A DNA stretch of 28,296 bases, the filler included, from an uncultured virus (IMG/VR IMGVR_UViG_2061766007_004279) (lineage: Duplodnaviria; Heunggongvirae; Uroviricota; Caudoviricetes). It is 2 parts of one record of this genome, joined end to end, with 100 filler letters (N's around TTAATTAATTAA, not from the genome) between each part and the next. Parts side by side here need not be neighbours in the genome. Positions count along the whole stretch, not along the records: positions 1 to 10,847 come from IMGVR_UViG_2061766007_004279; 1 more part is not named here. One strand, 5' to 3'. The notes under the pieces are model-generated. The model made no database searches. It worked only from the letters and a program-made list of their open reading frames with translations, and had not been told where the DNA came from. Position 1 is the first letter of the stretch; each line of letters opens with the position of its first letter. The position numbers and the translations under genes are program-made. Positions 4,881 through 11,285 of this stretch are shown one piece after another.

Positions 4881-4972
4881 GGAGAAGTACCCAAGAGGCC
4901 GAAGGGGCTCCCCTGCTAAGGGAGTAGGCGGTGTTGAGCCGCGCTCGGGTTCAAATCCCGACTTCTCCGCCA
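4881..4972 (+). tRNA. tRNA-Ser (anticodon GCT), probable prophage integration site
   Basis: GGAGAAG/CTTCTCC acceptor stem plus G-CCA; anticodon stem CTCCC-CTGCTAA-GGGAG (GCT at 4915-4917); long variable arm; GGTTCAAATCC T-loop. Confidence 0.97.
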
Positions 4973-5106: not shown

Positions 5107-6673
5107 TCAGACAGCCGCCGGAGGCTTGCCGATCGCGTTCACGCCGGCGCGCATATCGGAAGTATCTTTGTGGATGTATCGCTGCGTCGAAGAAAATTTT
5201 GCGTGGCGCATGATCTTCTGGATCAGCGTGGAGGAGAGCTGCGCTTTGTCCAGCGCCGTGCCGGTGGTGTGCCGGCAGCTGTACGGGGGAAGATCCCGGC
5301 AGCCGATGCGCTGCAGCGTGGCGTGGTACTCTTTGTAGAAGCCGTCGCGGTTCATGGAGAGGAGCTTCGCGCCGGAGGCATGCTCGCAGAGCTGGCGGAG
5401 CACCGGCTCGATGATGTCCGGGAAGACGATCGGCGTCTCGCGGCGCTTCTCCGTCTTCTTGCCGGCGCCTTCGATGGTCATGGCGTCCCACCGGATCATA
5501 TCCTTGCGGCAGGCCATGAGCTCGCCCGGCATCATGCCGGTGTAGATCATCAGCAGGATATAGCCGGCGATCATGTCGCCTTCGGTGTACGCGTTCCAGA
5601 TCTTCGTCTGCTCCAGGTCGTTGAACGGGACCGGCTCGCCTTCCTCCAGCTCGGGGAGGGTGATCATCCTGGCGAGGTTGATGGTGACGTCCTGGTCCGC
5701 CATGGCGCGCTGGTACAGCTTGGAGAGCAGGTTCTTGAGGTCGCGGGCAGTGTAGTAGGTGCTGCATCGGGCGTCCACGGCCTCCTGCAGGTCGCTGAGG
5801 CGCAGATCCGTGATCCGGCGGAATACGATGTCCGTCTTCAGAAGACGCCCGTGGGCGATCTTGTAGGCGCCCTGCTTGGAGTCGGAGAGCTTCGTCATGT
5901 CCGACGTGCTCCACGCCTGCCAGAGCTGCTCCAGCGTGGGGACGGCCTTCTTCCGGCGCTCCTCCTCGCAGCGGTGGCACCAGTCCATGGCGGNNNNNNN
6001 NNNNNNNNNNNNNNNNNNNNNNNNNNNNNNNNNNNNNNNNNNNNNNNNNNNNNNNNNNNNNNNNNNNNNNNNNNNNNNNNNNNNNNNNNNNNNNNNNNNN
6101 NNNNNNNNNNNNNNNNNNNNNNNNNNNNNNNNNNNNNNNNNNNNNNNNNNNNNNNNNNNNNNNNNNNNNNNNNNNNNNNNNNNNNNNNNNNNNNNNNNNN
6201 NNNNNNNNNNNNNNNNNNNNNNNNNNNNNNNNNNNNNNNNNNNNNNNNNNNNNNNNNNNNNNNNNNNNNNNNNNNNNNNNNNNNNNNNNNNNNNNNNNNN
6301 NNNNNNNNNNNNNNNNNNNNNNNNNNNNNNNNNNNNNNNNNNNNNNNNNNNNNNNNNNNNNNNNNNNNNNNNNNNNNNNNNNNNNNNNNNNNNNNNNNNN
6401 NNNNNNNNNNNNNNNNNNNNNNNNNNNNNNNNNNNNNNNNNNNNNNNNNNNNNNNNNNNNNNNNNNNNNNNNNNNNNNNNNNNNNNNNNNNNNNNNNNNN
6501 NNNNNNNNNNNNNNNNNNNNNNNNNNNNNNNNNNNNNNNNNNNNNNNNNNNNNNNNNNNNNNNNNNNNNNNNNNNNNNNNNNNNNNNNNNNNNNNNNNNN
6601 NNNNNNNNNNNNNNNNNNNNNNNNNNNNNNNNNNNNNNNNNNNNNNNNNGGCGCCGCATCGTTTGCAGTTCAT
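5107..6673 (-). CDS. int: Phage tyrosine integrase with N-terminal zinc ribbon (middle part in gap)
   Basis: Start MNCKRCGA at 6673 behind an AAAGGAGG RBS. Catalytic domain 5107-5990 has YTGMMPGE, YSCRHT and IMRHAKFSSTQRYIH. Linking the two pieces across the gap is inferred. Confidence 0.88.
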
Positions 6674-6727: not shown

Positions 6728-7414
6728 TCAAGGATCTTCGCGCTGAGATCCAGACTTTAAAAATGGATTGCCGCAGCTTCGATGGCCATCAATGTGTTCA
6801 ACCAGCGGGTTATCGTCAGAGAGCGTCTCTTCCAGACTATCCAGAATAACATCTATACCGGAAGTTCGAGCCAGCTTGATCGCAGGGACATAATCTCGGT
6901 CATTGCCTATGATAACGATCTGATCCACGATCCGATTGTACGCAAGTGTTGAGATGTCGACGCCCATTTTCATATCGACACCCTTCTGGGATACAGTGAG
7001 AATAAAATCTTTCTCCGTCAGATTCTCGCGTTTAAGAGTGCCGTTGCAGATTTTCTTAACAGCATCATACTTAAGAGTATAAACGGTATTCTCTGTATCG
7101 AGTTGACCTAAACGTAAGGCGACCTTACGTTTTCGTTTCAAAGCGCAAAGGAATTCCGTCATCCATTTGTATATATCTTGATTCCGCAAGTTGACGTCTT
7201 TCCCGGTAAGAGGGTGGTACGCTTGTTTGTCTGCGGGAGGGCAATCGTAATAAAAGATGCGATAGAGTTCATGTGAACGCTGGCGCTCCTTCAGATGCCT
7301 ATGGCAATAGGCAAACAGAGCATCTGCCGTCTCCACGGCGGAGTGGTCACCATAAAGGGTTTTGACACGGCGGCGAAAGAATCCACCATCTACAAGGATC
7401 GCTGTTTTCGACAT
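6728..7414 (-). CDS. NYN-domain (LabA/DUF88, PIN-fold) ribonuclease, low-GC cargo
   Basis: ILVDGGF, RIFYYD, QKGVDMKMGVDI and GNDRDYVPAIKLAR acidic motifs; GAGGTG RBS before ATG 7414; visibly AT-richer than the flanking phage DNA. Confidence 0.9.
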   Translation of the reverse strand: MSKTAILVDGGFFRRRVKTLYGDHSAVETADALFAYCHRHLKERQRSHELYRIFYYDCPPADKQAYHPLTGKDVNLRNQDIYKWMTEFLCALKRKRKVALRLGQLDTENTVYTLKYDAVKKICNGTLKRENLTEKDFILTVSQKGVDMKMGVDISTLAYNRIVDQIVIIGNDRDYVPAIKLARTSGIDVILDSLEETLSDDNPLVEHIDGHRSCGNPFLKSGSQREDP

Positions 7415-8139
7415 GTTTATCACCTCTTGAATAAAATAAAAGCCTTCAGAATAGGCACACCCCTTATGGTGGGGGACCTTATCNNNNNNNNNNNNNNNNN
7501 NNNNNNNNNNNNNNNNNNNNNNNNNNNNNNNNNNNNNNNNNNNNNNNNNNNNNNNNNNNNNNNNNNNNNNNNNNNNNNNNNNNNNNNNNNNNNNNNNNNN
7601 NNNNNNNNNNNNNNNNNNNNNNNNNNNNNNNNNNNNNNNNNNNNNNNNNNNNNNNNNNNNNNNNNNNNNNNNNNNNNNNNNNNNNNNNNNNNNNNNNNNN
7701 NNNNNNNNNNNNNNNNNNNNNNNNNNNNNNNNNNNNNNNNNNNNNNNNNNNNNNNNNNNNNNNNNNNNNNNNNNNNNNNNNNNNNNNNNNNNNNNNNNNN
7801 NNNNNNNNNNNNNNNNNNNNNNNNNNNNNNNNNNNNNNNNNNNNNNNNNNNNNNNNNNNNNNNNNNNNNNNNNNNNNNNNNNNNNNNNNNNNNNNNNNNN
7901 NNNNNNNNNNNNNNNNNNNNNNNNNNNNNNNNNNNNNNNNNNNNNNNNNNNNNNNNNNNNNNNNNNNNNNNNNNNNNNNNNNNNNNNNNNNNNNNNNNNN
8001 NNNNNNNNNNNNNNNNNNNNNNNNNNNNNNNNNNNNNNNNNNNNNNNNNNNNNNNNNNNNNNNNNNNNNNNNNNNNNNNNNNNNNNNNNNNNNNNNNNNN
8101 NNNNNNNNNNNNNNNNNNNNNNNNNNNNNNNNNNNNNNN

Positions 8140-8450
8140 TCGTTCAGCGCGTCATAGATGGAGTCGATCTCCCGCACCGGCATCGCCACCATTTGGTCGC
8201 GCGGGAAGCGTGCGTGCTCCGCCTTCGGCTCCTCAGGCTTCTCCGCGCTTTCCTCCCACCCCATCAGATACGCCGGTGTGGTGTGGAGGGCTTCAGCGAG
8301 CTTTGCGATTTTATCACGGCGCATATTTTCGATATAACCGGTCTCCCATTTCCGGACCGTGCTTTTGCCAACGCCGACTACTCTCGCGACATCTTCCAGA
8401 GTCATACCGAGCTCATGACGGCGGATTTTGATTTTGTCCTTGAGTTCCAT
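8140..8450 (-). CDS. CI-like repressor, XRE HTH (variant A; C-terminus in gap)
   Basis: IKIRRHELGMTLEDVARVVGVGKSTVRKWETG...KIAKLAEALHTTPAYLMGWE; divergent from the cro-like gene. Confidence 0.9.
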
Positions 8451-8547
8451 GGCACTTCTCCATTCTATAGAGTGACCATACAATACCATATAAGTATCTT
8501 AAAAGCAACAAATTTATAGAATTGAAGAAAAAAGTTTCCTTTAGTAC

Positions 8548-8577
8548 TTGACAGGCGCAAAAGAGATATGTTATCTT
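8548..8577 (+). promoter_or_regulatory. Rightward (lytic) promoter
   Basis: TTGACA at 8548-8553; TG-n-TATCTT at 8569-8577. Confidence 0.7.
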
Positions 8578-8581
8578 CGTA

Positions 8582-8597
8582 GTGTCCTAAAAGACAC
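8582..8597. promoter_or_regulatory. Repressor operator palindrome GTGTC-N6-GACAC (second copy 8827-8842; degenerate copy 8494-8509)
   Basis: GTGTCCTAAAAGACAC over the predicted transcription start; GTGTCCTAAATGACAC over the cro stop; GTATCTTAAAAGCAAC in the cI-cro spacer. Confidence 0.7.
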
Positions 8598-8613
8598 GCA
8601 AGGAGGTGACATC

Positions 8614-8835
8614 ATGAACAAGGCGCGTTTACGCTATGAGATGGACACACGGGCAGTCAGCGTAGAGGATCTTTGCGCTTATGTCGGTATAAGCAAATCA
8701 GCGTTCTATAAGAAGCTCAACGGGAAATCTGAGTTCACCCGCCGGGAGATCGAGANNNNNNNNNNNNNNNNNNNNNNNNNNNNNNNNNNNNNNNNNNNNN
8801 NNGTTGATATTTTTTTTGCAGAGAAAGTGTCCTAA
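8614..8835 (+). CDS. Cro-like XRE HTH regulator (variant A)
   Basis: AAGGAGG RBS; SVEDLCAYVGISKSAFYKKLNGKSEFTRREI...IFFAEKVS. Confidence 0.88.
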   Translation: MNKARLRYEMDTRAVSVEDLCAYVGISKSAFYKKLNGKSEFTRREIEXXXXXXXXXXXXXXXXVDIFFAEKVS

Positions 8836-8855: not shown

Positions 8856-8961
8856 CCGAGCGAAGCCCAATGAAATGGGTTCGCGAGGAAAAGGACGAGC
8901 ACCGGAATGAATGAGCCCTGCCGCAGGCGGTCAGGGCGAACGATATGGAGGTTGTGAGGAC
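8856..8961 (+). repeat. Palindromic interspersed element (copy 1); diverged copy at about 11010-11110
   Basis: Shared GCCCAATG(A/T)AATGGG...GCGAGGAA(A/G)AGGACGAGCACCGGA...TTGTGAGGACG in both copies; the core hairpin recurs inverted at 24003-24016. Confidence 0.65.
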
Positions 8962-9174
8962 GTGCAGACACTTACCGAAATCGAAGCCTGCGAGCGGGAG
9001 ATGCTGGTGCCGGCGGACATCGCGCCCATCCTGGGGAGCGATCCGCAGACGATCCGGCTGATGGCGCACCAGTGCCGGGAGCAGCTGGGCTTCCCGGTGA
9101 GCATCATCGGGAACCGCGTGAAGATCCCCAGGGCGGCGTTCCTGGCGTTCATGCGCGGGGAGAAGAGCTCTTAA
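8962..9174 (+). CDS. Excisionase-like small HTH DNA-binding protein
   Basis: MLVPADIAPILGSDPQTIR...LGFPVSIIGNRVKIPRAAFLAFM fits a winged-HTH Xis pattern; same N-terminus repeated at 11124-11174. Confidence 0.7.
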   Translation: MQTLTEIEACEREMLVPADIAPILGSDPQTIRLMAHQCREQLGFPVSIIGNRVKIPRAAFLAFMRGEKSS

Positions 9175-9187
9175 AGGAGGAAGGACG

Positions 9188-9399
9188 ATGGCAGAGGGAA
9201 TCTGTTTCCTGTGCGGGAACTACGAGACCGTGGAGCGGCACCACCTGTTCGGCGGGGCGCTGCGGAAGAAGGCGGACCGGCTGAAGCTGACGGTGATGCT
9301 GTGCCCGTGGTGCCACCAGTACGACGCCGACAGCGCCCACCGGAGCGCGGAGGCGCGGCTGTACCTGCACCGGTACGGACAGCGGAAGGCCATGGAAGA
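9188..9399 (+). CDS. Small Zn-binding HNH-like phage protein (truncated by gap)
   Basis: CFLCG...ERHHLFGG...LCPWCHQ...SAH; AGGAGG RBS. Confidence 0.65.
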
Positions 9400-9409
9400 N
9401 NNNNNNNNN

Positions 9410-9432
9410 GCGCCGCATCGTTTGCAGTTCAT
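9410..9432 (-). CDS. 5' end of a second integrase allele (variant B)
   Basis: 9410-9469 is nearly identical to 6650-6708, encoding MNCKRCG with the same RBS, then diverges. Confidence 0.7.
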
Positions 9433-9486
9433 GGGGGCCTCCTTTCTGAGGGGATGGGAGGGGAAAACATTTTATGGCTTTCGGAA

Positions 9487-9515
9487 TTGACAAAAAATTA
9501 AAGATATCATATACT
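9487..9515 (+). promoter_or_regulatory. Near-consensus sigma70 promoter with no downstream sense ORF
   Basis: TTGACA (9487-9492), 17 bp spacer, TATACT (9510-9515). Confidence 0.85.
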
Positions 9516-9521
9516 CTTATT

Positions 9522-9606
9522 AAGCTAACTCGTGAAGGAAGAAAGCTGGGTTNNNNNNNNNNNNNNNNNNNNNNNNTAGAATTCCCAAGCTCCTGGGGTT
9601 AGCTTT
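9522..9606 (+). ncRNA. Putative structured small RNA convergent with the HEPN gene
   Basis: Starts 7 nt after the -10 box. 5' AAGCTAACTC pairs with 3' GGGTTAGCTT (9596-9605); inner AGCTGGG (9544-9550) pairs with CCCAAGCT (9584-9591); T-rich tail; centre (9553-9576) is N. Confidence 0.65.
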
Positions 9607-10588
9607 GATTTTTCTTAAAATGGTCTTTCAGATTCTGAACGATATGTTCAGGGTCTTTTTTTATTTCGTCAACGATAAAGTCGATCGCCTGAATGGAATA
9701 GCTATAAGTCGGTGTATCGTACTGGGTGTGGGTGTAGCAGTAACGCTGGTCATCTTTAAGGCTGTAGTATTTGACGAAAAGATTAAAGTGATAATTATTA
9801 AACTCTACGGGAGCATTGTTATAGATGAGATCAATGCCAAGACGTTTCAGACGAGCCCGGACCTCCCTGTAGCACTTTTTCGCGGTGTATGGGTATATGC
9901 CATTAACGTCCTTGATTTCCTTTATGATCGTCGCTCCTGCTGCGGCGTTGCGATCGATGTGAACAATGTCCGTTGCCTTGTTCTTGTCTTTGGTTATNNN
10001 NNNNNNNNNNNNNNNNNNNNNNNNNNNNNNNNNNNNNNNNNNNNNNNNNNNNNNNNNNGTGGTGATCAGGCGTTCGGAGATCTGGCCGGGATACTTCGCG
10101 CGGATCTCTTCCTCTGTAAGGGAAGACATGGATACCGTGAGAGTAAGGAAGTTTGCCGGTATCACGGACGTCATATCGATCCCATGGAACTCCTGCATCT
10201 TCTCCACAAAGTTGAACACGCAGGCCTGGAACAGAGGGATGTATACCATCTCATACTCTTCAACGATGAAGTGGGTGCTGGTATTACGAAGGTCAACGAT
10301 CCGGCTTAAGTTTTTACGAAGGGGTGCGTGTTCGTTGGTAAAAACCTCCCTGATGCAGTTTTCAAGGGTGATAGTACGCTCGGGGTGGTCTTTATAGTAG
10401 ATAGAAGCCTCGCCCTTCGTGTTCACAAGATGAGCTTTCAGCATCAGTTCCCAGGCGTTGCAGATGAAGAAGCTGAACCCTTCGACCCGGTAACGGATGG
10501 ATGGCTTGTTATACACTTCTATGGCCAGAAGGAAAGCCTCCTTGGATTTATCCAGAAGCTTAGACACAAAACCGTTATCATTCTCCAT
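9599..10588 (-). CDS. DUF3644-like HEPN-domain predicted ribonuclease, low-GC cargo (variant B)
   Basis: KSKEAFLLAIEVYNKP..YRVEGFSFFICNAWELMLKA N-terminus recognised as DUF3644-like; HEPN Rx4H motif RNTSTH at 10271-10288; start ATG 10588 with AGAAGGTG RBS. Confidence 0.8.
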   Translation of the reverse strand: MENDNGFVSKLLDKSKEAFLLAIEVYNKPSIRYRVEGFSFFICNAWELMLKAHLVNTKGEASIYYKDHPERTITLENCIREVFTNEHAPLRKNLSRIVDLRNTSTHFIVEEYEMVYIPLFQACVFNFVEKMQEFHGIDMTSVIPANFLTLTVSMSSLTEEEIRAKYPGQISERLITXXXXXXXXXXXXXXXXXXXXXITKDKNKATDIVHIDRNAAAGATIIKEIKDVNGIYPYTAKKCYREVRARLKRLGIDLIYNNAPVEFNNYHFNLFVKYYSLKDDQRYCYTHTQYDTPTYSYSIQAIDFIVDEIKKDPEHIVQNLKDHFKKNQS

Positions 10589-10657
10589 ATGTGCACCTTC
10601 TTTCGTTATTCCANNNNNNNNNNNNNNNNNNNNNNNNNNNNNNNNNNNNNNNNNNNN

Positions 10658-10847
10658 GACGAGGCGGAGGTCGCGGCCGGAGTCGGGGGCGACGTCGTCG
10701 TCGGCGTCGGAGCGGCTGCGGTTCAGGGAGAAGAGGTGGACGCAGCCGAGGGCGTCGAGGCAGAACTGCTTGACGAGGAAGCCGCCGTCGAGGAAGAAGG
10801 CGGCCACTTCGCCGTCGCGGGGGACGCGCTTGACGCCGAGGGCGACG
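10658..10847 (-). CDS. Fragment of S24 peptidase (LexA/CI-type) domain, probably the variant B repressor
   Basis: RVPRDGEVAAFFLDGGFLVKQF...LFSLNR resembles the S24 C-terminal region with catalytic Lys; it sits between the cargo and the second cro. Confidence 0.6.
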
Positions 10848-10947
10848 NNNNNNNNNNNNNNNNNNNNNNNNNNNNNNNNNNNNNNNNNNNNTTAATTAAT
10901 TAANNNNNNNNNNNNNNNNNNNNNNNNNNNNNNNNNNNNNNNNNNNN

Positions 10948-11003: not shown

Positions 11004-11285
11004 TGCGAGAAGAGCCCAATGTAATGGGTCTGCGAGGAAGAGGACGAGCACCGGAGCGGATGAGCTTTCGAACCTGAGAGGAAGCGAATGATGCGAAGTT
11101 TGTGAGGACGATTGGAGGACGTTATGCAGACACTTACCGAAATCGAAGCCTGCGAGCGGGAGATGCTGGTGCCGNNNNNNNNNNNNNNNNNNNNNNNNNN
11201 NNNNNCGAGGTCAAGAACATGAACCTGCTTGAACTGGCAGAGGCGAAGGAAGAGATCAGAGCGATCGAGCGGGAGCTGGGGATCC

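Follow-up and report, generated by a model that had tools for sequence, protein, structure and literature searches.

Closest described systems

In type III toxin-antitoxin (TA) systems such as ToxIN, an RNA antitoxin inhibits an RNase toxin, in pairs that are often borne on mobile elements and bring about abortive infection. In some type I TA pairs, including txpA/RatA and bsrG/SR4 of Bacillus subtilis, the 3' ends of the RNA and the toxin gene overlap. The abiF RNA and its gene share a strand, with the RNA upstream. According to the available text of a preprint, the non-coding RNA (ncRNA) RCd22, which contains two abiF motifs, binds the HEPN toxin AbiF directly and thereby neutralises it (bioRxiv 10.1101/2025.04.15.648962). 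Here we describe a locus in a stretch of 28,296 nucleotides (the window, filler included) from an uncultured virus (IMGVR_UViG_2061766007_004279), in which the gene for a DUF3644-family protein, a predicted HEPN nuclease, converges on a separately promoted structured small RNA. The RNA is an undescribed family, absent from Rfam 15 and obligately attached to one clade of candidate defence nucleases. An earlier note, made from the sequence of the window, had proposed a prophage-borne module of a HEPN protein plus a dedicated RNA. We find that this module is real, because a conserved convergent promoter and a strongly covarying structure were found beside homologs of the gene and Rfam holds no such family.

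The locus resembles AbiF/RCd22 in that a prophage HEPN toxin candidate is accompanied by an adjacent, conserved, structured ncRNA and by no protein antitoxin. However, the protein combines DUF3644 with a restriction endonuclease (REase)-like domain and is not Abi_2, and the RNA is convergent, overlaps the 3' end of the gene and has a single three-way-junction fold. It also differs from the abiF RNA motif in that no Rfam covariance model matches it. The proposed logic is shared with type III TA systems, whereas the RNA here is single-copy, convergent and equipped with its own promoter, without a tandem repeat array (the sole tandem array across 9000-10850 is an unrelated 6-nt repeat at 10678-10710), and the protein is HEPN/REase-like rather than of the ToxN-type fold. 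A separately promoted convergent RNA that overlaps the 3' end of the gene (by 20 nt here) recalls type I TA systems, but the gene encodes a 329-aa two-domain nuclease instead of a small hydrophobic membrane peptide and, unlike type I antitoxins, the RNA is conserved in sequence across phyla.

Compared with the defence proteins and candidates PDC-S19, HEC-08 and Ishtar, the window protein is a clear DUF3644/EC042_2821 member. The available text of Anantharaman 2013 describes the family as HEPN fused to REase, often in restriction-modification (RM) operons, a context that we also find. HEC-08, in the portion of its description available, has zinc-finger C-terminal domains.

No Rfam 15 family matches the element in searches of the window, of 10 unmasked loci at E <=0.1 and of the RNA alone at E <=10. 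The best scores of the RNA alone were 7-16 bits, against gathering scores of 39-70. As the earlier note had supposed, the portions of the literature available to us contain no link of DUF3644 to an RNA, and a literature search on HEPN, type III TA systems, structured RNAs and covariation brought up nothing about this RNA. Neither PDC-S19 nor the 24-nt core string of the RNA was found in the literature, of which the main texts were covered; catalogues such as PMC8040213 could hold the RNA unnamed. The name EC042_2821 is seldom used in the literature searched.

The small RNA and the nuclease gene in the window

The locus comprises the following features.

9487-9492, + strand: -35 hexamer TTGACA (TTGAC is kept in a 75-sequence alignment)
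9510-9515, + strand: -10 hexamer TATACT, with a 17-nt spacer from the -35 hexamer
9521-9618, + strand: structured small RNA of ~95 nt, match of the covariance model of the family (R1)
9522-9531, + strand: 5' arm of helix P1 (AAGCTAACTC), pairs with 9596-9605
9544-9550, + strand: 5' strands of helices P2b and P2c (AGC, then GGG; AGCTGGG)
9553-9576: 24 masked bases (N), spanned by the R1 alignment
9584-9591, + strand: 3' strands of helices P2c and P2b (CCC, then AGCT; CCCAAGCT)
9596-9605, + strand: 3' arm of helix P1 (GGGTTAGCTT), includes the complement of the nuclease stop codon at 9599-9601
9599-10588, - strand: nuclease gene, 329 aa, DUF3644 (HEPN) and EC042_2821 REase-like domains (Pfam, PADLOC)
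9606-9618, + strand: U-rich tail after P1 (tail columns at least 90% T in the family)
9630-9666, + strand: second terminator-like hairpin, 12 pairs followed by the T run TTTTTTTATTT, within the 3' part of the nuclease open reading frame (ORF)
10271-10288, - strand: HEPN R-x4-H motif RNTSTH (R101...H106)
10436-10450, - strand: ELMLK (E47-K51), inside an invariant NAWELMLK block

The R1 model scores 62 bits (E 3.8e-13) in the window although 24 bases of the element are masked, and there is no other match in the window. By position in the family model, the masked segment should hold most of two hairpins, P3 and P4. The promoter agrees with the consensus at 11/12 positions and places the predicted transcription start at ~9521-9523. 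As the earlier note had stated, it drives no ORF: the only + strand ORF spanning the region begins at 9474, upstream of the -35 hexamer, and none starts behind the promoter. Three promoter-like sites were seen, compared with 1.4 +/- 1.3 in shuffled sequence. A site of this kind is not beyond chance by itself, and the weight therefore rests on the conservation of the promoter.

The two stems that had been noticed in the window are both real. The outer one is helix P1, which covaries in the family, and the nested one corresponds in the family to two short helices, P2b and P2c. The U-rich tail, also noticed before, is likely to be the intrinsic-terminator run of the small RNA, and its opposite strand codes for the Lys-rich C-terminus of the nuclease. 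The end of the RNA does overlap the stop codon of the nuclease gene, which falls within the 3' arm of P1 on the - strand, but the overlap had been put at only about 8 coding nt; the model-defined RNA, tail included, shares 20 nt with the ORF. The hairpin at 9630-9666 may be a back-up stop for small-RNA read-through, or a chance match.

The nuclease gene is AT-rich, as GC drops from ~60% in the flanks to ~42% across 9600-10400, and carries both motifs expected from the earlier reading (ELMLK and RNTSTH). It is masked at 9998-10058, which affects 21 of the 329 aa. The protein matches DUF3644 at 1.7e-59 (200.9 bits against a cut-off of 27.6, residues 10-176) and EC042_2821 at 1.3e-30 (106.2 bits against a cut-off of 24.9, residues 227-321), and PADLOC assigns it to the candidate PDC-S19 (model PDLC04952, 2.7e-133 over residues 7-326). 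The catalytic R and H of the R-x4-H motif are invariant (66/66 and 56/56 relatives). By motif and domain, we predict that the protein is a HEPN RNase. The AlphaFold2 model of its closest relative (L004, identity of the best segment 62%) has a mean predicted local distance difference test score of 81.7 and consists of a helical N-terminal half and an alpha/beta C-terminal domain. Foldseek returned no match at E <=0.001; the weak matches include the HEPN toxins SO_3166 and HepT, with 5yep_B at a probability of 0.95 and E 0.32. No relative was found by sequence among solved structures.

Conservation of the RNA next to the nuclease gene

Relatives of the nuclease were sampled at one genome per species, which gave 263, and the best 80 loci were examined. 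We counted a locus as informative if it had a full-length homolog with at least 100 nt downstream. A near-invariant RNA motif lies just past the stop codon in 75 of the best 80, that is, in 75/75 informative loci. Among the five others, one has no stop before the end of the locus (L020), two have just 9 nt downstream (L039 and L054), and in two the match ends at residue 287 or 274 of 329 (L032 and L069); the last two are clipped genes without the RNA. In 80 loci from viral contigs, a convergent RNA was identified at the 3' end of the gene in 73 (73/73 informative). Five of the remaining seven end within 6 nt of the match, and the other two (L357 and L384) are without the RNA, the homology of gene and RNA both ending at a breakpoint inside the last 16 and ~4 codons, respectively. 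Altogether, 148/148 genes that reach the family C-terminus carry the RNA, although these loci are not independent events because many viral loci are near-identical, and the four genes without it are all 3'-clipped. The RNA is convergent with the gene in all loci examined.

Among DUF3644 proteins, the RNA goes with one clade. Among 301 genomes from one phylum, six have DUF3644, and the RNA lies beside three of these six; more distant DUF3644 proteins are without this RNA.

At one of the clipped viral loci (L357:1520-1593), where the nuclease breaks off ~16 codons before its end, a new ORF starts (MKKGQIIEGVIERVDFPN...). We take this ORF to resemble the start of an rRNA methyltransferase, and the site may mark a prophage-host junction.

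Fold, covariation and strand of the RNA

The fold and the R1 model were derived from an alignment of 74 homologous elements (A2). The RNA is closed by helix P1, followed by a rod of P2a (GG/CC), P2b (RGC/GCY) and P2c (GGG/YCC) and then by a three-way junction that bears hairpin P3 (stem UUCCC/GGGAG, loop GAAU) and hairpin P4, which is variable in length and sequence. The U run after P1 is at least 90% conserved. Pairing is found in 98.0% of 1820 cells of the alignment, compared with 93.0% after shuffling and 39-63% with slid partners. Two-sided (compensatory) changes occur in 11/26 pairs (150 cells), including 5/9 pairs of P1, and none of 500 shuffles reaches any of five measures. The purine-pyrimidine (R-Y) pair of P2b is G-C in 79 and A-U in 51 of 135 distinct sequences, and the pairs with the strongest mutual information in these sequences are exactly the nested helices. 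An extra pseudoknot was rejected, as the top mutual-information pairs all lie within these helices.

Pairing reaches 98.0% on the + strand and only 81.2% if the gene strand is read instead; G.U cells number 322 and A.C cells 16. This excess of G.U indicates that the RNA is read from the + strand of the window. The promoter, of sigma-70 type, is kept at 10/12 positions or better in 66/74 loci, with spacers of 16-18 nt, whereas the reverse complement never exceeds 9/12. The best -35 hexamer across the 74 loci is TTGACA in 35 and TTGACT in 19, the best -10 hexamer is TATAAT in 30 and TATACT in 25, and the -10 hexamer ends 5-8 nt before P1 in 58/74.

Over 56 loci (1540 pairs), the RNA without the P4 loop is 85.5% identical (minimum 74.7%) and the protein 61.6%; identity of the gene is 75.2% at codon positions 1 and 2 and 44.5% at position 3. 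About 50 positions of the RNA do not change from phylum to phylum, many of them unpaired, junction bases among them. The ORF stops at three or more places in the 3' part of the RNA (within the 3' arm of P1 or directly past it, at TAACCCC, or as far in as the CUUAGAA stretch), and the 5' half of the RNA is outside any ORF. Coding constraint cannot explain the conservation of the RNA, because the position of the ORF end varies across loci. Thermodynamic stability was considered as evidence and gave no support (z -0.87 to +0.91 on the RNA strand); with such unremarkable z-scores, the case for the RNA rests on covariation.

Several other identities were rejected. The 77-nt span from P1 to P1 has no tRNA match by ARAGORN or Rfam at the element in unmasked homologs. 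Integron attC sites, attachment (att) sites, miniature inverted-repeat transposable elements and dispersed repeats do not fit an element with a single copy per genome, its own promoter and RNA-type covariation. The earlier note had named a mere terminator as an outcome that would speak against the module; the element has a conserved promoter, a covarying three-way junction and invariant unpaired bases in addition to a stem and U run, and is not a plain intrinsic terminator. Pairing in trans with the ribosome-binding region of the nuclease gene was also discarded, since the 5' regions are unconserved and predicted duplexes have a mean z of -0.11 (45 loci, mononucleotide shuffles).

RNA copies without the nuclease gene

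In a genome scan that started from the RNA, its core matched at least 120 stretches in many phyla, and 80 loci were taken with flanks; R1 matches 80/80. The state of the gene beside each was read with a protein-family profile against six frames. The gene is intact at 39 loci, frameshifted at 2, a remnant at 10 and missing at 25, and 4 loci are cut by a contig end. Thus, it is decayed or absent in 37/76 informative loci, and absent in 25/76. Every protein match beside these loci is convergent with the RNA. The corresponding viral search gave at least 111 matches; among 80 loci, the gene is intact at 42, frameshifted at 2 and missing at 33, and 3 are uninformative. The proposed pairing of RNA and gene therefore stands from the side of the gene, as full-length genes always occur with the RNA, but not from the side of the RNA, which is also found alone and as phage variants. 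These orphan and phage-borne copies are the main part of the data that an antitoxin role leaves unexplained.

Orphans are on a par with the remaining copies in R1 score: 23/25 genome orphans reach 77.6-112.8 bits, and the other two are core-only variants (L101, 46.1 bits; L156, 34.0 bits). In three genomes that carry an orphan RNA, the whole assembly is free of homologs of the gene; in two control genomes a homolog was found. The RNA occurs as one match per genome in 5/5 genomes, in each of which 150 first-pass candidates were scored. The convergent slot beside orphans is occupied by Abi_2, HsdM, MmeI, HNH, AAA_14-DUF4143, SEC-C or MazEF-like genes, or by unrelated genes. At three loci (L141, L114 and L123) the orphan RNA is convergent to a type I RM methylase gene (HsdM), and at the first of these it is antisense to the operon, in the space from hsdM to hsdS, as though a nuclease gene once embedded there had been lost. 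The orphan RNA of another locus is overlapped at its 3' end, in the manner seen with DUF3644 genes, by the gene at L142:1575-3023 (- strand). The protein is longer than 480 aa and has a SEC-C motif at its C-terminus; its N-terminal part is cut off by the end of the locus.

A minority of the viral matches are variants in which the junction core is kept and the closing stem is another. Some have a phage tRNA or tRNA-like gene 25-30 nt ahead of them on their own strand (L220/L242/L299, L251 and L252/L260), and others follow the late-activator gene phrog_36 (L245, L251 and L294). The core-only variants from bacterial genomes, L101 and L156, are of the same kind, and the copy in L101 precedes the DNA-packaging gene GP3_package. 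From their position beside phrog_36 and GP3_package, variants are placed in the phage late region, far from DUF3644 genes. Several tRNAs ahead of variants have odd anticodon loops (tRNA-??? of ARAGORN, with 2- or 4-base anticodons).

We identified the RNA, unannotated, in Listeria phage LP-HM00113468 (beside gp39, 'DUF3644 domain-containing protein'), in Corynebacterium phage Poushou (between the integrase and gp31) and in Flavonifractor phage Chenonceau, and two Streptococcus phage records also match. It is distributed over Bacillota, Actinomycetota, Bacteroidota, Spirochaetota, Fusobacteriota, Pseudomonadota and Melainabacteria. A blastn search of E. coli genomes with the Oxalobacter copy gave no match, distant versions of the RNA being beyond the reach of this search, and plasmids gave a single partial match. 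In Oxalobacter (L079:1036-1218), a C4 antisense RNA (70.6 bits) and an isrK-like RNA (48.2 bits) lie ~1.8 kb upstream of the nuclease, which marks this as a phage immunity region of the P1/P7 type.

Possible functions of the RNA

Our preferred though tentative explanation, drawn from comparative sequence evidence, is that the RNA could be an antitoxin or negative regulator of the HEPN nuclease in a two-part module, similar to AbiF/RCd22 in logic and not in anatomy. The RNA would be made constitutively and would hold the nuclease inactive. It would act mainly by binding the protein, like type III RNA antitoxins and RCd22, with pairing to the complementary 3' end of the nuclease mRNA as a possible second layer. 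If the RNA ran short, because a phage shut off host transcription or because the RNA decayed or its element was lost, the nuclease would be freed and could cut RNA, perhaps DNA, so that infection would be aborted or prophage-losing cells killed. The pattern is antitoxin-like because every full-length gene comes with the RNA, which in turn often occurs on its own. Binding to the protein would be the most likely mode, because conservation, also of unpaired bases, far exceeds the needs of cis-complementarity and because the RNA core persists where no cognate mRNA exists. Flanked on either side by a T-rich run, helix P1 has the look of a bidirectional terminator that the two genes share. As a T-rich run follows the complement of P1 on the gene strand, the mRNA probably ends only past the whole RNA gene. 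It would then carry the full complement of the RNA, and pairing at the mRNA 3' end would probably also take place and may contribute.

A number of observations weigh against this explanation. The RNA exists without the nuclease, and its primary role may therefore lie elsewhere. Orphan RNAs look intact, 13/25 keeping the promoter at 10/12 or better, and phage late and tRNA regions contain variants. In the unbiased sample, 3/6 DUF3644 proteins are without the RNA, and one of those three shares both domains. HEC-08 and Ishtar, as far as the available text of their descriptions goes, are DUF3644 defence proteins presented without any RNA. An essential cofactor would also lead one to expect the asymmetry of the linkage, if less strongly, as mutations have a target ten times larger in the gene than in the RNA. 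Near-identical viral copies make the counts overstate independence. Single-sequence fold stability is ordinary (see above), and the minimum-energy fold of one homolog (L010) differs from the consensus.

A role as antisense RNA of the type I kind, in which the RNA would pair with the 3' end or 3' untranslated region of the nuclease mRNA or with an operon transcript and act through RNase III-type cleavage or transcriptional interference, without any protein binding, appears doubtful to us. It stays in play because of the 20-nt ORF overlap and of an mRNA 3' untranslated region that probably crosses the whole RNA gene, given the T-rich run after the P1 complement (between the -10 hexamer and P1). 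The two units are convergent and overlapping, by up to ~45 nt of ORF at loci with a deeper stop, the nuclease gene of RM operons is followed by another gene on its own strand, and txpA/RatA and bsrG/SR4 offer a precedent for overlap at 3' ends. Complementarity in cis, however, is automatic and would not call for conservation of the sequence, whereas identity is 85.5% in the RNA and 44.5% at third codon positions, and unpaired bases of the RNA are invariant. Orphans and phage variants keep the core without a cognate mRNA, the extent of overlap is not conserved, and a 329-aa nuclease is unlike the small membrane peptides that serve as type I toxins. It is unlikely that the RNA is instead a required cofactor, a structural or activating subunit of the nuclease comparable to scaffold RNAs elsewhere. 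Such a subunit would agree with the constant presence of the RNA beside full-length genes and with its being more conserved than the protein, and the larger mutational target of the gene would lead to gene-first decay here too. The RNA has no variable guide-like segment, though, as its sole variable part, P4, is a self-paired hairpin; orphan RNAs stay intact in genomes without the gene, and decayed RNA is found beside 0/148 full-length genes.

Linkage to the nuclease might also be merely positional, with an RNA of mobile elements that has its own function in phages or islands, as a shared bidirectional terminator or insulator or as the flank of a cargo-swapping hotspot near integrases and RM operons. 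The RNA is indeed alone in 25/76 informative genome loci and 33/77 viral loci, other cargo (Abi_2, HsdM, MmeI, HNH, AAA_14-DUF4143, SEC-C, MazEF-like) fills the convergent slot, variants follow phage tRNA and late-activator genes, and P1 with T runs on both sides resembles a bidirectional terminator. We judge this quite unlikely, since a separate promoter, a three-way junction and invariant junction bases would all be superfluous in a terminator, the linkage seen from the gene (148/148) is far tighter than a hotspot neighbourhood, the one alternative partner examined, Abi_2, does not keep the RNA (it is present only at the locus of the query, among the query and 4 relatives), and one match per genome in 5/5 argues against a dispersed repeat. 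A sensor, with the three-way junction as an aptamer for a small molecule or phage product and formation of P1 deciding between termination and antisense read-through across the nuclease gene, is highly improbable. The layout is aptamer-like (P1 directly before the U run, invariant junction bases, a peripheral hairpin of variable length), stability is marginal, one minimum-energy fold contains an alternative conserved pairing (GAAGGA/UCCUUU), and a second terminator-like hairpin lies further inside the gene. Nevertheless, no Rfam riboswitch class matches, the alternative pairing is without covariation (column 15 varies A/U/C against a fixed U), and neighbouring genes suggest no ligand.

RNA decoys are known from phages, among them the pseudo-ToxI of phage PhiTE and RNA anti-CRISPRs. 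They share with the present case that phage genomes carry trimmed copies of the RNA of a defence system outside the defence locus, and by this analogy we conjecture a decoy role for the phage variants. In its full form, with the RNA as the conserved heart of an RNA-gated HEPN defence module and the phage core copies behind tRNA and late-activator genes as decoys that would keep the host nuclease off during infection, this is a long shot. If true, it would be a counter-defence made of RNA.

Whatever the role of the RNA, DUF3644 joins Abi_2, to which it is unrelated, as a second HEPN family accompanied by a dedicated structured RNA. This speaks for RNA control as a recurring design among HEPN nucleases, the presumed background to the origin of Cas13. 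PDC-S19 becomes a two-component system, which changes how it is to be annotated and tested; cloning of the ORF alone may for this reason be toxic or uninformative. The orphan and phage-borne copies are a concrete starting point in the search for RNA-based ways of resisting or evading such nucleases.

Neighbouring genes and prophage-like setting

Across homologous loci, the module sits next to prophage integrases or inside type I RM operons. The gene beyond the RNA was identified for 58 neighbour proteins, one per locus: 5 are tyrosine integrases, 4 serine recombinases, 5 HsdS and 6 HsdR or ResIII helicases, and the rest are Cas3, WYL, transposase or housekeeping proteins. A conserved third component or protein partner was not found among these 58, and the earlier observation that no protein antitoxin lies beside the gene thus extends to its relatives, whose neighbours vary. 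Abi_2 was considered as a second conserved partner and rejected: for the Abi_2 query from L145 and 4 relatives, one of which has little downstream DNA, the RNA is present only at the query's own locus.

In the window itself, the locus is located in the left-hand piece, where the following features precede it.

4881-4972: tRNA-Ser (ARAGORN), the sole tRNA found in the window
5107-5988, - strand: Phage_integrase-family ORF
6728-7423, - strand: NYN-domain ORF, between integrase and repressor
7479-8489, - strand: XRE-type repressor, facing the Cro-like ORF
8548-8835: Cro-like helix-turn-helix ORF, facing the XRE-type repressor

Small + strand ORFs follow the Cro-like ORF, then the RNA element and then the nuclease gene. 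With a tRNA-Ser, an integrase and a repressor/cro pair, the setting is prophage-like, in agreement with the prophage-borne origin that had been proposed. A short fragment (10658-10807, - strand) just past the nuclease gene, where the contig ends, has an N-terminus (...FLDGGF...) similar to that of the NYN-domain ORF.

The window contains 58 masked runs, with 5066 N bases in total. A spacer of 100 bases at 10848-10947 consists of 44 N, TTAATTAATTAA and 44 N. It is probably an artificial contig joint, the window being two contigs placed end to end, so genes that flank it need not be neighbours. An identical stretch of ~47 nt occurs at 8966-9012 and 11128-11174, on opposite sides of the joint, and the sequences that precede the two copies are also alike (~8860-8915 and 11010-11070). 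Both copies run into an ORF that begins ...QTLTEIEACEREMLVP, and the sample may hold two related prophage early regions.

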